From the IMG/VR virus record IMGVR_UViG_2651869782_000025: a DNA stretch of 64,000 nucleotides; one strand, written 5' to 3'. The stretch is from a virus (lineage: Duplodnaviria > Heunggongvirae > Uroviricota > Caudoviricetes). Below the pieces are notes generated by a model. The model was not told the DNA's origin. It saw only the letters and a list, made by a program, of their open reading frames with translations, and did no database searches. The stretch's first letter is position 1; each line of letters begins with the position of its first letter. A program made the position numbers and the translations under genes. Of this stretch, positions 21,724 to 22,818 are shown piece by piece.

Positions 21724-22189
21724 CAGGGTTTTCGTCATGGTTAGCGACTTTGCGGCGGTTTAGAAACTGACCATTAAAGTAAATGCAAACGATGATCTGA
21801 TGATGGTAGCGGCCTAAGAAGCCAGACGCCACGGGGTATGAGTCGTCCCCCGTCAAAAAATCGACCGCAGAGTGTCCCCGTCTGTGTATTAGGGAACGGG
21901 GAGGCATAACAAGGTAAGGGCGCTGGTTCGATTAACCAGATGAGCGAGAAGGGGCCATCTTTTGGTCAGTGCCCTTACCTGTTACGTCCTTTTTCATTCA
22001 GCGTAACAGCCATTGCTTAATGGCATCCTGGGAGAATTTCTTGTAACGGGTATATCCCGTCATGCTGAAGGCGCTAATCACGCTGGAAGCCAGGGTTGTG
22101 CATCCCCTGTTACCGAATTGCAGCCAGGGCGCGGTGCGCCGAAAAGCATACGGAGGTGGAAGCCCTCGCCGGAGACGTACCCGGCAAGT

Positions 22190-22265
22190 GATGGTGTAGC
22201 TCAGCGGTTAGAGCGGTTGACTGTTAATCAACGGGTCGATGGTTCAAATCCATCCACCATCGCCA
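22190..22265 (+). tRNA. tRNA-Asn (anticodon GTT)
   Basis: Cloverleaf read by hand: acceptor GATGGTG/CACCATC, anticodon loop CTGTTAA, T-arm GATGG-TTCAAAT-CCATC, 3' GCCA. Confidence 0.85.
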
Positions 22266-22267
22266 AT

Positions 22268-22343
22268 GCCGGTTTAGCTCAGTTGGTAGAGCGCCTGCCT
22301 TGTAAGCAGGATGTCAGCGGTTCGAGTCCGTTAATCGGCACCA
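22268..22343 (+). tRNA. tRNA-Thr (anticodon TGT)
   Basis: Acceptor GCCGGTT/AATCGGC, D-arm GCTCAGTTGGTAGAGC, anticodon loop CTTGTAA, T-loop TTCGAGT, 3' ACCA. Confidence 0.85.
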
Positions 22344-22818
22344 GCACAACAGGTAAGGGTATTTTGCGACGTCGGAGATCGCCGAGCTTGGCAGAGGGTT
22401 CGAATCCCTACGAAGTACCCTTACCGTTGTGAGGAAGCGCAGCTCTTTGAAGCAACCAGAAGATAAGCATCTGGCTTCACAACATAAACCGCAGGAACGA
22501 CCAATAAACGGTAGTCCGTATGGAGAACACCCCGTTGAGGAAGAGGCCTGGCCGGAACCGTAACCGGCACTATAACGTTGAGAACACTGGCGTAACGGGG
22601 TCATATCCCAATCTACGAATAAATGTTGCGTTGCAGCGTGACAACCAGTGTTCTCAACATTGTGGTGAAAGCGCGTTGCTGGCGCGCAAGTCCGCCCTAT
22701 GGCAACGAGGCGGCGTAGTAAATATCGATGCCTTAGTCATCAAGCGCACTGACCGGCCTTATGGGCTATGAACAAAAAGAGGCGCAGTCGGAGATCAGCA
22801 CCGACCACCACAATCACT

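Follow-up and report, generated by a model that had tools for sequence, protein, structure and literature searches.

The DNA analysed here (hereafter the window) is a 64,000-nucleotide stretch of the Caudoviricetes record IMGVR_UViG_2651869782_000025, and it is a phage or plasmid of the P1 type; over the 2.8 kb that surround the elements described below, identity is 96% with phage P1 and 97–98% with numerous P1-like plasmid-prophages of E. coli and Salmonella. It carries four long imperfect hairpins, E1 to E4, that belong to one RNA hairpin family, widespread in phages and prophages of the Enterobacterales, lambda included. We propose that these hairpins are RNase III-type processing signals that separate tRNAs and small RNAs, a reading drawn from their anatomy and from the title of a 1988 paper on lambda, to which we give a probability of about 0.55.

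Two of the four hairpins, E1 and E2, had been picked out in the initial annotation as paralogous elements with shared ends, flanking inverted repeats of about 14 bp and, in the second element, a T-arm-like sequence. All of these traits were borne out: GGTAAGGG is present at 21913–21920 and 22352–22359 and CCCTTACC at 21972–21979 and 22418–22425, a repeat finder returned arms of 14 nt (93% complementary) and 13 nt (92%), the T-arm-like sequence AGGG-UUCGAAU-CCCU lies at 22395–22409, and E1 and E2 have the family-specific stem in common. The 8-mer GGTAAGGG has five sites on the two strands of the window, against 1.24 expected (none of 100 shuffles reached five), and four of them are the arms of E1 and E2. 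With their flanks, the helices extend to about 20 bp, reading CAUAAC-AA-GGUAAGGGCGCUG / CAGUGCCCUUACC-U-GUUACG in E1 and CACAAC-A-GGUAAGGGUAUUU / AAGUACCCUUACC-GUUGUG in E2. The statement that the two elements bracket tRNA-Asn and tRNA-Thr is right in that both tRNAs lie between them, but the fit is loose, as E1 ends 203 nt upstream of tRNA-Asn and E2 begins 1 nt after the CCA end of tRNA-Thr. Two more copies, E3 (22568–22667) and E4 (22904–23021), had been overlooked; the repeat finder gives them as longer inverted repeats of the same design, 22568–22590 with 22645–22667 and 22904–22929 with 22996–23021, respectively.

RNA folding, one of the checks that had been proposed, found E1 and E2 far more stable than shuffled sequence (−40.3 kcal/mol, z −5.0, and −41.6 kcal/mol, z −4.8; none of 200 shuffles was as good in either case), and E3 and E4 fold at −47.3 kcal/mol (z −7.2) and −46.1 kcal/mol (z −4.3). 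Helices of 19–22 bp are predicted for all four; those of E2–E4 persist in the fold of the whole leader, E2 in both the minimum free energy and the centroid folds of the 1.3-kb leader. When all 64 kb were scanned with the generic pattern of AAC, a stem and GTT, E1–E4 came up on the plus strand, together with a weak candidate at 45978–46160 (10-bp stem) that was not recovered by the family model. This covariance model (R2) was built from 56 full-length lambdoid members, from which P1-type stems and E2-, E3- and E4-type tip motifs had been filtered out, and it defines the family by a tip of 40–110 nt on an inner stem of 13 bp, below which come an unpaired base and the outer stem NNNAAC/GUUNNN. 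Run over the 64 kb with its filters off, R2 matched E2 with 52.1 bits on the plus strand (E 1e-11; 29.9 bits on the minus strand), E1 with 28.5 bits on the plus strand (E 2e-5) and 35.7 bits on the minus strand (E 2e-7), E3 with 21.7 bits (E 1e-3) and E4 with 16.5 bits (E 0.03), and it had no other match above 10 bits in the window. It is this recovery of all four by a model built without P1-type members that identifies E1–E4 as members of a single family. The strand of E1 is ambiguous because this element is almost symmetric. The tRNA strand is favoured in 11 P1-like loci (38.6 against 31.8 bits) and the other strand in about five, including the window, and in the E1 homologues of other P1-like phages the wobble pairs of the outer and inner stems favour different strands.

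The base of the family hairpin is a helix of about 20 bp whose outer stem (CACAAC/GUUGUG) has 6 bp and whose inner stem has 13 bp, with a bulged A between the two; the inner stem contains a conserved U.U mismatch, and AAC and GTT are the invariant ends of the whole. Among 73 distinct stems, aligned as six outer pairs, the unpaired A and thirteen inner pairs, 91% of the pairs are formed; at the third inner position most members have U.U and the P1 type has U-A, and the stem ends sharply after the thirteenth inner pair. Twelve of the 21 pairs have changed on both sides (69 cells), and the observed values were reached in none of 500 shuffles; in a control with slid partner columns, pairing was 38–53% and double changes numbered 6–22 cells. 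There are 111 G.U cells against 13 A.C cells, and therefore pairing falls from 92.6% to 84.6% when the opposite strand is considered. Typical members score 20–40 bits higher with R2 on the sense than on the antisense strand, and all 64 hairpins with a tRNA in their locus, among the matches listed, are co-oriented with that tRNA. Covariation, the G.U asymmetry and the co-orientation with tRNAs point to an RNA structure that is read on the tRNA strand and selected for pairing. A chance inverted repeat was ruled out by the shuffles, the covariation and the conservation, and a miniature inverted-repeat transposable element by the variable interior, only the arms being conserved.

The initial annotation had made its case depend on conservation in related phages; the stem proved to be conserved across phages of the Enterobacterales. 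A sensitive search of a phage collection with the four elements found E1–E3 in P1-like phages and E2 also in an Enterobacter Uetakevirus. The E4 tip (22930–22995) is 98.5% identical to positions 44866–44930 of lambda (J02459), and lambda carries a hairpin with the same base at 44787–44862, separated by a few bases from the preceding T-run of tR', which terminates 6S RNA. Two copies were found in Salmonella phage ST1UNAM, and Enterobacter phage BUCT554 has one copy found by reading and a second, weaker one found by a later model search. The family sample is based on a scan of a viral contig collection with an exact two-arm pattern, which returned at least 120 stretches; these include at least 101 unique hairpins that differ in the tip but have the base in common (consensus NNNAAC-A-GGUAAGAGCAUUG, 40–75 nt, CAGUGCUCUUUCC-GUUGUG). 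The same scan of a collection with one genome per species gave 115 matches, of which 67 lack the stem, approximately the number that the pattern would match by chance. About 22 others are exact copies of the lambda hairpin in unrelated taxa and were left out of the taxonomic range; they belong to Pseudomonas, Psychrobacter, Algoriphagus, Oceanobacillus, Enterococcus and various metagenome-assembled genomes, often to very short or low-coverage contigs, and are most likely lambda DNA contamination. The remaining matches, among the titles displayed, come mostly from the Enterobacterales (Serratia, Klebsiella, Pectobacterium, Pantoea, Rahnella, Kluyvera, Citrobacter, Erwinia, Enterobacter, Rouxiella, Chimaeribacter and Escherichia), with a small Martelella scaffold as the one exception. 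The DLP12 and Qin prophages of E. coli K-12 MG1655 contain no copy. No family of Rfam 15 covers the hairpin, either in the window (20500–25000 at E ≤ 10) or in BUCT554 (E ≤ 1), and 14 related loci compared with Rfam 15 at gathering scores gave tRNAs only; the hairpin is not described in the literature searched.

Flanking open reading frames (ORFs) were taken from 14 hairpin loci, and ten of them, five upstream and five downstream, were scanned against PHROGs. Four of the upstream ORFs are Q-like antiterminators from four different PHROG families and three of the downstream ORFs are holins, both assignments being obtained in two loci, which places the lambdoid hairpin between Q and the holin gene, in a putative late-operon leader as in lambda. 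Among 130 unique contexts, the hairpin directly follows a T-tract in 21%, abuts the CCA end of a tRNA in 12% (usually tRNA-Thr, as in the window; tRNA-Thr directly abuts a family hairpin in 24 related loci) and abuts or runs into the 5' end of a tRNA in 5%, for example a tRNA-Arg that starts inside GUUGUG. In 51% the hairpin is followed by GUGAA, with which a structured module begins. This module is closed by the stem GUUGUGGUG...CACCACAAC, in which the 3' arm of the hairpin is used a second time; the window has two such modules, M3 and M4. Because the 5' strand of the module is the 3' arm of the preceding hairpin, the outer stem of the hairpin and the closing stem of the module are mutually exclusive, and the outer motif can pair either backwards, in the hairpin, or forwards, with the next module. 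The closing stems of M3 and M4 are acceptor-like (UUGUGGUG/CACCACAA and UGCGGUG/CACCGCA). M3 parallels M4 in its layout, its region is highly structured in the leader fold, and it would appear to be a discrete RNA.

M4 matches the Rfam family STnc100 (RF02076) with 37.8 bits over model positions 31–147 (E 8e-6), below the gathering score of 47. STnc100 and PasD are prophage small RNAs from the region downstream of Q (RF02076; bioRxiv 10.64898/2026.05.13.724894). The genomic niche is thus the same, and M4 lies directly 3' of E4, whose 3' arm is used in the closing stem of the module; however, what the Rfam family describes is the module next to the hairpin, not the hairpin itself.

The tRNA and hairpin content differs among P1-like phages, and the homology breakpoints between the window and six relatives (22349, 22414–22442, 22561, 22672 in four cases, 22928, 23001 in four cases and 23142) all fall on hairpin arms or outer motifs. 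For example, P1 homology stops at 22672 and resumes at 23001, and the intervening cassette (22673–23000), which comprises M3, tRNA-Ser(TGA) and the 5' half of E4 and is present in the window, in phage D6 and in some plasmids, is missing from P1 and has its ends on the E3 and E4 arms. The same tip is also found with different flanks on both sides among the matches listed. These alignments show mosaic junctions falling on the predicted hairpin arms, in hairpins that sit in operon leaders. The sequence of the E4 tip lies in lambda immediately 3' of the lambda hairpin, outside any hairpin and flanked by GTTGTG...CACAAC, and for this reason the same cargo can take the place of a tip or a place between hairpins.

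For RNase III of E. coli, a single site corresponds to a helix of about 19–20 bp, and precedents for RNase III processing include the early sites of T7, the tRNA cluster of T4 and the maturation of DicF. The predicted helices of E1–E4, the covariation and the wobble asymmetry agree with a double-stranded RNA helix of about two turns (approximately 20 bp), which suggests that the size of the conserved helix fits the enzyme. The remaining anatomy is that of such a signal: irregularities near the middle of the two-turn helix, a location in untranslated RNA, and close apposition to the ends of tRNAs or other stable RNAs. In the proposed mechanism, the host RNase III would bind the helix, whose length is that of one of its binding sites, and would cut within it. 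The cut would free the adjacent tRNAs with short tails, to be trimmed by RNase P and exonucleases, as well as adjacent structured small RNAs and the tip of the hairpin itself, and the conserved base would act as a context-independent excision signal. The arms may further serve as points at which RNA modules are exchanged between phages by recombination, because they are the sole sequence common to otherwise unrelated modules. We infer from this anatomy that the enzyme is RNase III, and likewise the positions of the cuts and a role for the released tips. Lambda offers a lead: the hairpin at 44787–44862 is clearly homologous to the family and exceeds every other helix in length when the lambda leader is folded (centroid), and Daniels et al., going by the title of their 1988 paper, reportedly dealt with RNase III sites in lambda late RNA in vivo, which for this hairpin is a lead and not proof. 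With the RNase III hairpins of phages (the early R sites of T7, the T4 tRNA cluster) the family shares a helix of about 20 bp, a central irregularity, the lack of translation and a position between functional RNA units, and the member in the lambda late leader directly follows tR'. In contrast to these hairpins, the base of the present family is almost invariant across an entire bacterial order, its tip is a large, structured and highly variable insert instead of a small loop, and its cleavage is a prediction.

Several observations weigh against RNase III processing as a full account. The sequence of the stem is far more conserved than the weakly sequence-specific RNase III requires; the additional constraint may come from another protein, from the alternative pairing with the downstream module or from homogenisation by recombination. 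Cleavage alone also leaves the retention of structured tips of 40–75 nt unexplained, because a simple stem-loop would suffice. Of the four hairpins in the window, E3 and E4 match the family model weakly, and the nearly symmetric E1 scores higher on the minus strand. Finally, the covariation sample was gathered with a pattern that fixes 20 stem positions, and since the pattern holds these positions constant, the covariation there rests on divergent members, namely E3, E4 and others such as GAUAAUGGC/GCCAUUAUC and UGAAACGGC/(A)CCGUUUCA. The near-invariant stem, the large tips and the ambiguity of E1, none of which is explained by cleavage alone, leave room for a different protein partner or a structural role, for a tRNA-like role and for a role in DNA recombination.

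The tRNA-like role is best judged from the tips, which are inserts of 40–75 nt and form at least 47 classes without detectable mutual similarity. Along with processing signals, now favoured, the initial annotation had suggested tRNA remnants or non-canonical tRNA-like RNAs; the elements would then be degenerate tRNAs or working tRNA-like molecules, with the long stem as an extended acceptor and the tip as what remains of the cloverleaf. T-arm-like hairpins do occur in six of the 47 tip classes (shuffles give 0.31 on average and three at most), and family hairpins are located among real tRNAs. In E2, a T-arm-like hairpin with a 4-bp stem, where canonical T-arms have 5 bp, and with a loop of the canonical UUCRANY type stands beside the 3' strand of a 7-bp stem, together with a D-arm-like hairpin of 4 bp with GG in its 9-nt loop; across three subtypes (P1-like, Uetakevirus and other phages), GCGAYGUCGGAGAUCGCC is kept and UGGYAGAGGGUUCGAAUCCCUAC, which contains the T-arm, is kept unchanged. 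The 7-bp stem that joins this core to the conserved base covaries (U.G/A-U/C-G at one position and U-A/G-C at another), and the predicted E2 tip resembles the elbow of a tRNA that lacks its anticodon arm and seems to be under selection in its own right. However, 41 of the 47 classes have no T-arm despite the common base, the likeness to 59 real tRNAs of these loci never extends beyond 10–16 nt of the T-arm, and the T-like motif of E1, GGUUCGAUU, has no proper stem and reads GGUGUGAUU in the homologues of E1, i.e., it is not conserved. The Rfam tRNA and tRNA-Sec models do not match E1 or E2 at E ≤ 10 (cmscan of 20500–25000 finds only the four real tRNAs), ARAGORN calls nothing in either element by default or with -mt, and at the 80% threshold it gives only a spurious tRNA-Tyr (22325–22419) that overlaps tRNA-Thr and borrows the T-arm of E2. 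With no cloverleaf and no anticodon arm, the E1–E4 hairpins are neither tRNAs nor clear tRNA remnants, and a tRNA identity for the whole elements is quite improbable. The combination in the E2 tip of a T-arm, a D-like hairpin with a GG loop and a stem stacked next to the T-arm, the whole carried on a long helix, resembles tRNA-like domains without an anticodon arm, namely that of tmRNA and the tRNA-like module of the bacterial Y RNA YrlA, but in E2 the T stem is set off from its neighbouring stem by a single unpaired A, a CCA end is lacking, and the full arrangement is found in this one tip class only. The YrlA, tmRNA and tRNA models of Rfam have no match that covers E1 or E2; the only YrlA match (RF02553), with 25.6 bits where the gathering score is 69, extends over the two real tRNAs at 22210–22327. 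Readings as Y RNA, tmRNA, DicF or ALIL were rejected, their Rfam matches being either below threshold or misplaced. A search for antisense targets of the four tips within the window gave only matches of 10–12 nt, which is the chance level.

The other two roles concern the stem. It might be an uncut structural RNA that keeps the leader folded against Rho, stabilises the transcript or binds a protein other than RNase III at the bulged A and the U.U motif. Leaders that remain untranslated over hundreds to thousands of nt would suit such a role, as would a stem whose sequence, bulge and mismatch are conserved well beyond the needs of pairing. Nevertheless, no protein is common to all carrier phages, so the binding partner would have to be a host factor; late transcription in lambdoid phages is already antiterminated by Q; and the abutment of tRNA ends within 0–2 nt is left unexplained. 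We consider this role unlikely. Less likely still, in our judgement very improbable, is that the hairpins act at the DNA level, as recombination sites for cassettes of tRNAs and small RNAs similar to the attC sites of integrons. The resemblance is considerable, as both are imperfect inverted repeats of 70–130 nt that end in AAC...GTT, vary in the centre, have an unpaired base close to the foot of the stem and are located between exchangeable cassettes, and the breakpoints on the arms and the differing cassette content of P1-like phages would be accounted for. However, the strand-asymmetric pairing is that expected of RNA, the hairpins are always co-oriented with transcription, and the occurrence of one tip with different flanks on both sides indicates ordinary homologous exchange in either arm and not a single crossover at GTT. 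In addition, the consensus (G)CACAAC / GTTGTG(G) departs from the attC core RYYYAAC/GTTRRRY at one position on each side, its third and fifth positions breaking the Y and R rule. No integrase is associated with the hairpins (the carrier phages were not searched systematically), and P1, lambda and Uetakevirus have no evident recombinase in common, again with no systematic search made.

RNase III processing hairpins of phages are a known kind of element, and one member of the present family may have been mapped in lambda in 1988. What appears to be new is a base that is constant across a whole bacterial order, its dozens of unrelated tips, among them an anticodon-less tRNA mimic, and its place at the junctions of exchangeable RNA modules. 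The processing reading would give a simple rule for packing and trading tRNAs and small RNAs in phage leaders, namely a constant excision hairpin with exchangeable content, and it would tie the ban leader of P1 to the late leader of lambda by an RNA element absent from Rfam. A further idea, which we hold to be rather unlikely, is that the conserved stem serves Enterobacterales phages as a universal 'socket' for expressing and releasing highly variable small structured RNAs, some of them, such as the E2 tip, mimics of the tRNA elbow; as the arms are conserved, the cargo would be swappable between unrelated phages. If so, tips that have been set free could work in trans, for example as decoys for, or regulators of, enzymes that process or modify tRNAs or defence nucleases that target them, and the system would be an RNA-level counterpart of integron cassettes. 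Should the tips be released and active, they would make up a large and unexplored reservoir of small RNAs in phages, with anticodon-less tRNA mimics among them. The constant stem might also find use as a natural insulator part.

By homology with P1, E1–E4 lie within the leader of the C1-repressed ban operon, which would be transcribed rightward from a repressor-controlled promoter as about 2.7 kb of mostly untranslated RNA. The P1 annotation of the matching stretch has, in order, the C1 operator Oban with the Pban promoters, a 'dicF-like region', tRNA-Asn, tRNA-Thr, tciA/B/C, trnI and ban. The features of the window are listed in Table 1.

Table 1. Features of the putative ban-operon leader in the window (coordinates are those of the window).
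Feature	Coordinates	Strand	Description
C1 operator palindrome and Pban promoter region	21505..21536	+	Start of the predicted rightward ban-operon transcript containing all elements; perfectly abutting inverted repeat ATATTGCTCTAATAAA/TTTATTAGTGTAATAT; homologous to Oban (Op72ab) and P1ban/P2ban of P1 (AF234172)
Homologue of the P1 'dicF-like region'	21631..21724	+	3' end is a terminator-like hairpin with a T-run (21700–21724)
E1, family hairpin	21905..21986	+ listed, strand ambiguous	Outer stem CAUAAC/GUUACG, inner stem GGUAAGGGCGCUG/CAGUGCCCUUACC, 41-nt tip
tRNA-Asn (GTT)	22190..22265	+	ARAGORN; Rfam tRNA 74.5 bits
tRNA-Thr (TGT)	22268..22343	+	ARAGORN; Rfam tRNA 72.9 bits; CCA end 1 nt from E2
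E2, family hairpin	22345..22431	+	Outer stem CACAAC/GUUGUG, bulged A22351, inner stem of 13–15 bp, branched tip
E2 tip core	22366..22409	+	D-arm-like hairpin GCGA-CGUCGGAGA-UCGC (22366–22382), 12-nt linker, T-arm AGGG-UUCGAAU-CCCU (22395–22409)
E3, divergent family hairpin	22568..22667	+	Outer stem CACUAUAA/UUGUGGUG (two U.G pairs), C.A mismatch, perfect 14-bp inner stem GUUGAGAACACUGG/CCAGUGUUCUCAAC
M3, structured module	22660..22815	+	Closed by UUGUGGUG...CACCACAA; 5' strand common with the 3' arm of E3
tRNA-Ser (TGA)	22819..22905	+	ARAGORN; in cassette 22673–23000
E4, divergent family hairpin	22904..23021	+	CAGCGCAAC-GUUAAGAGUAUUUGGCU / AGCCAAAUGCUCUUACC-AUUGCGGUG; begins inside the CCA end of tRNA-Ser
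M4, STnc100-like module	23015..23135	+	7-bp closing stem UGCGGUG/CACCGCA; 5' strand overlaps the 3' arm of E4
tRNA with CAT anticodon	23869..23944	+	tRNA-Ile2 (trnI) in the P1 annotation; ARAGORN and Rfam
ban (DnaB-like replicative helicase)	24219..25589	+	ORF list; P1/RefSeq annotation; protein-coding end of the operon

In the homologue of the 'dicF-like region', the Rfam DicF model has no match at E ≤ 10, and the sole weak Rfam match there is to permuted tmRNA (25.7 bits). In the unrelated phage BUCT554, a weak DicF match (22 bits) follows the E2-type hairpin on its downstream side, which points to small-RNA arrays of a similar kind in the leaders of BUCT554 and of the P1 type. The P1 ORFs plp ('putative lipoprotein') and upl are antisense to tRNA-Thr, E2 and E3 (22314–22604 of the window, minus strand). 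This region is mosaic among P1-like phages, and in a close relative the RefSeq pipeline has no coding sequence there; plp and upl are probably not genes, and on the classical P1 map these doubtful ORFs would give way to a string of RNA modules. The tRNA with a CAT anticodon is called as Met by ARAGORN and annotated as tRNA-Ile2, with a lysidine-modified anticodon, in P1 and RefSeq. At a threshold of 60%, ARAGORN also reports a 'tRNA-Gly' at 22104–22176, just upstream of tRNA-Asn; the call appears spurious and falls in an otherwise unexplained structured stretch of 200 nt between E1 and tRNA-Asn. Finally, a weak inverted repeat of 20 nt with 70% complementarity (23129–23148 with 23224–23243) starts with the CACCGCAAC motif and spans the start codon of tciA (ATG at 23169); this repeat may represent a fifth, degenerate hairpin or else serve in translational control.

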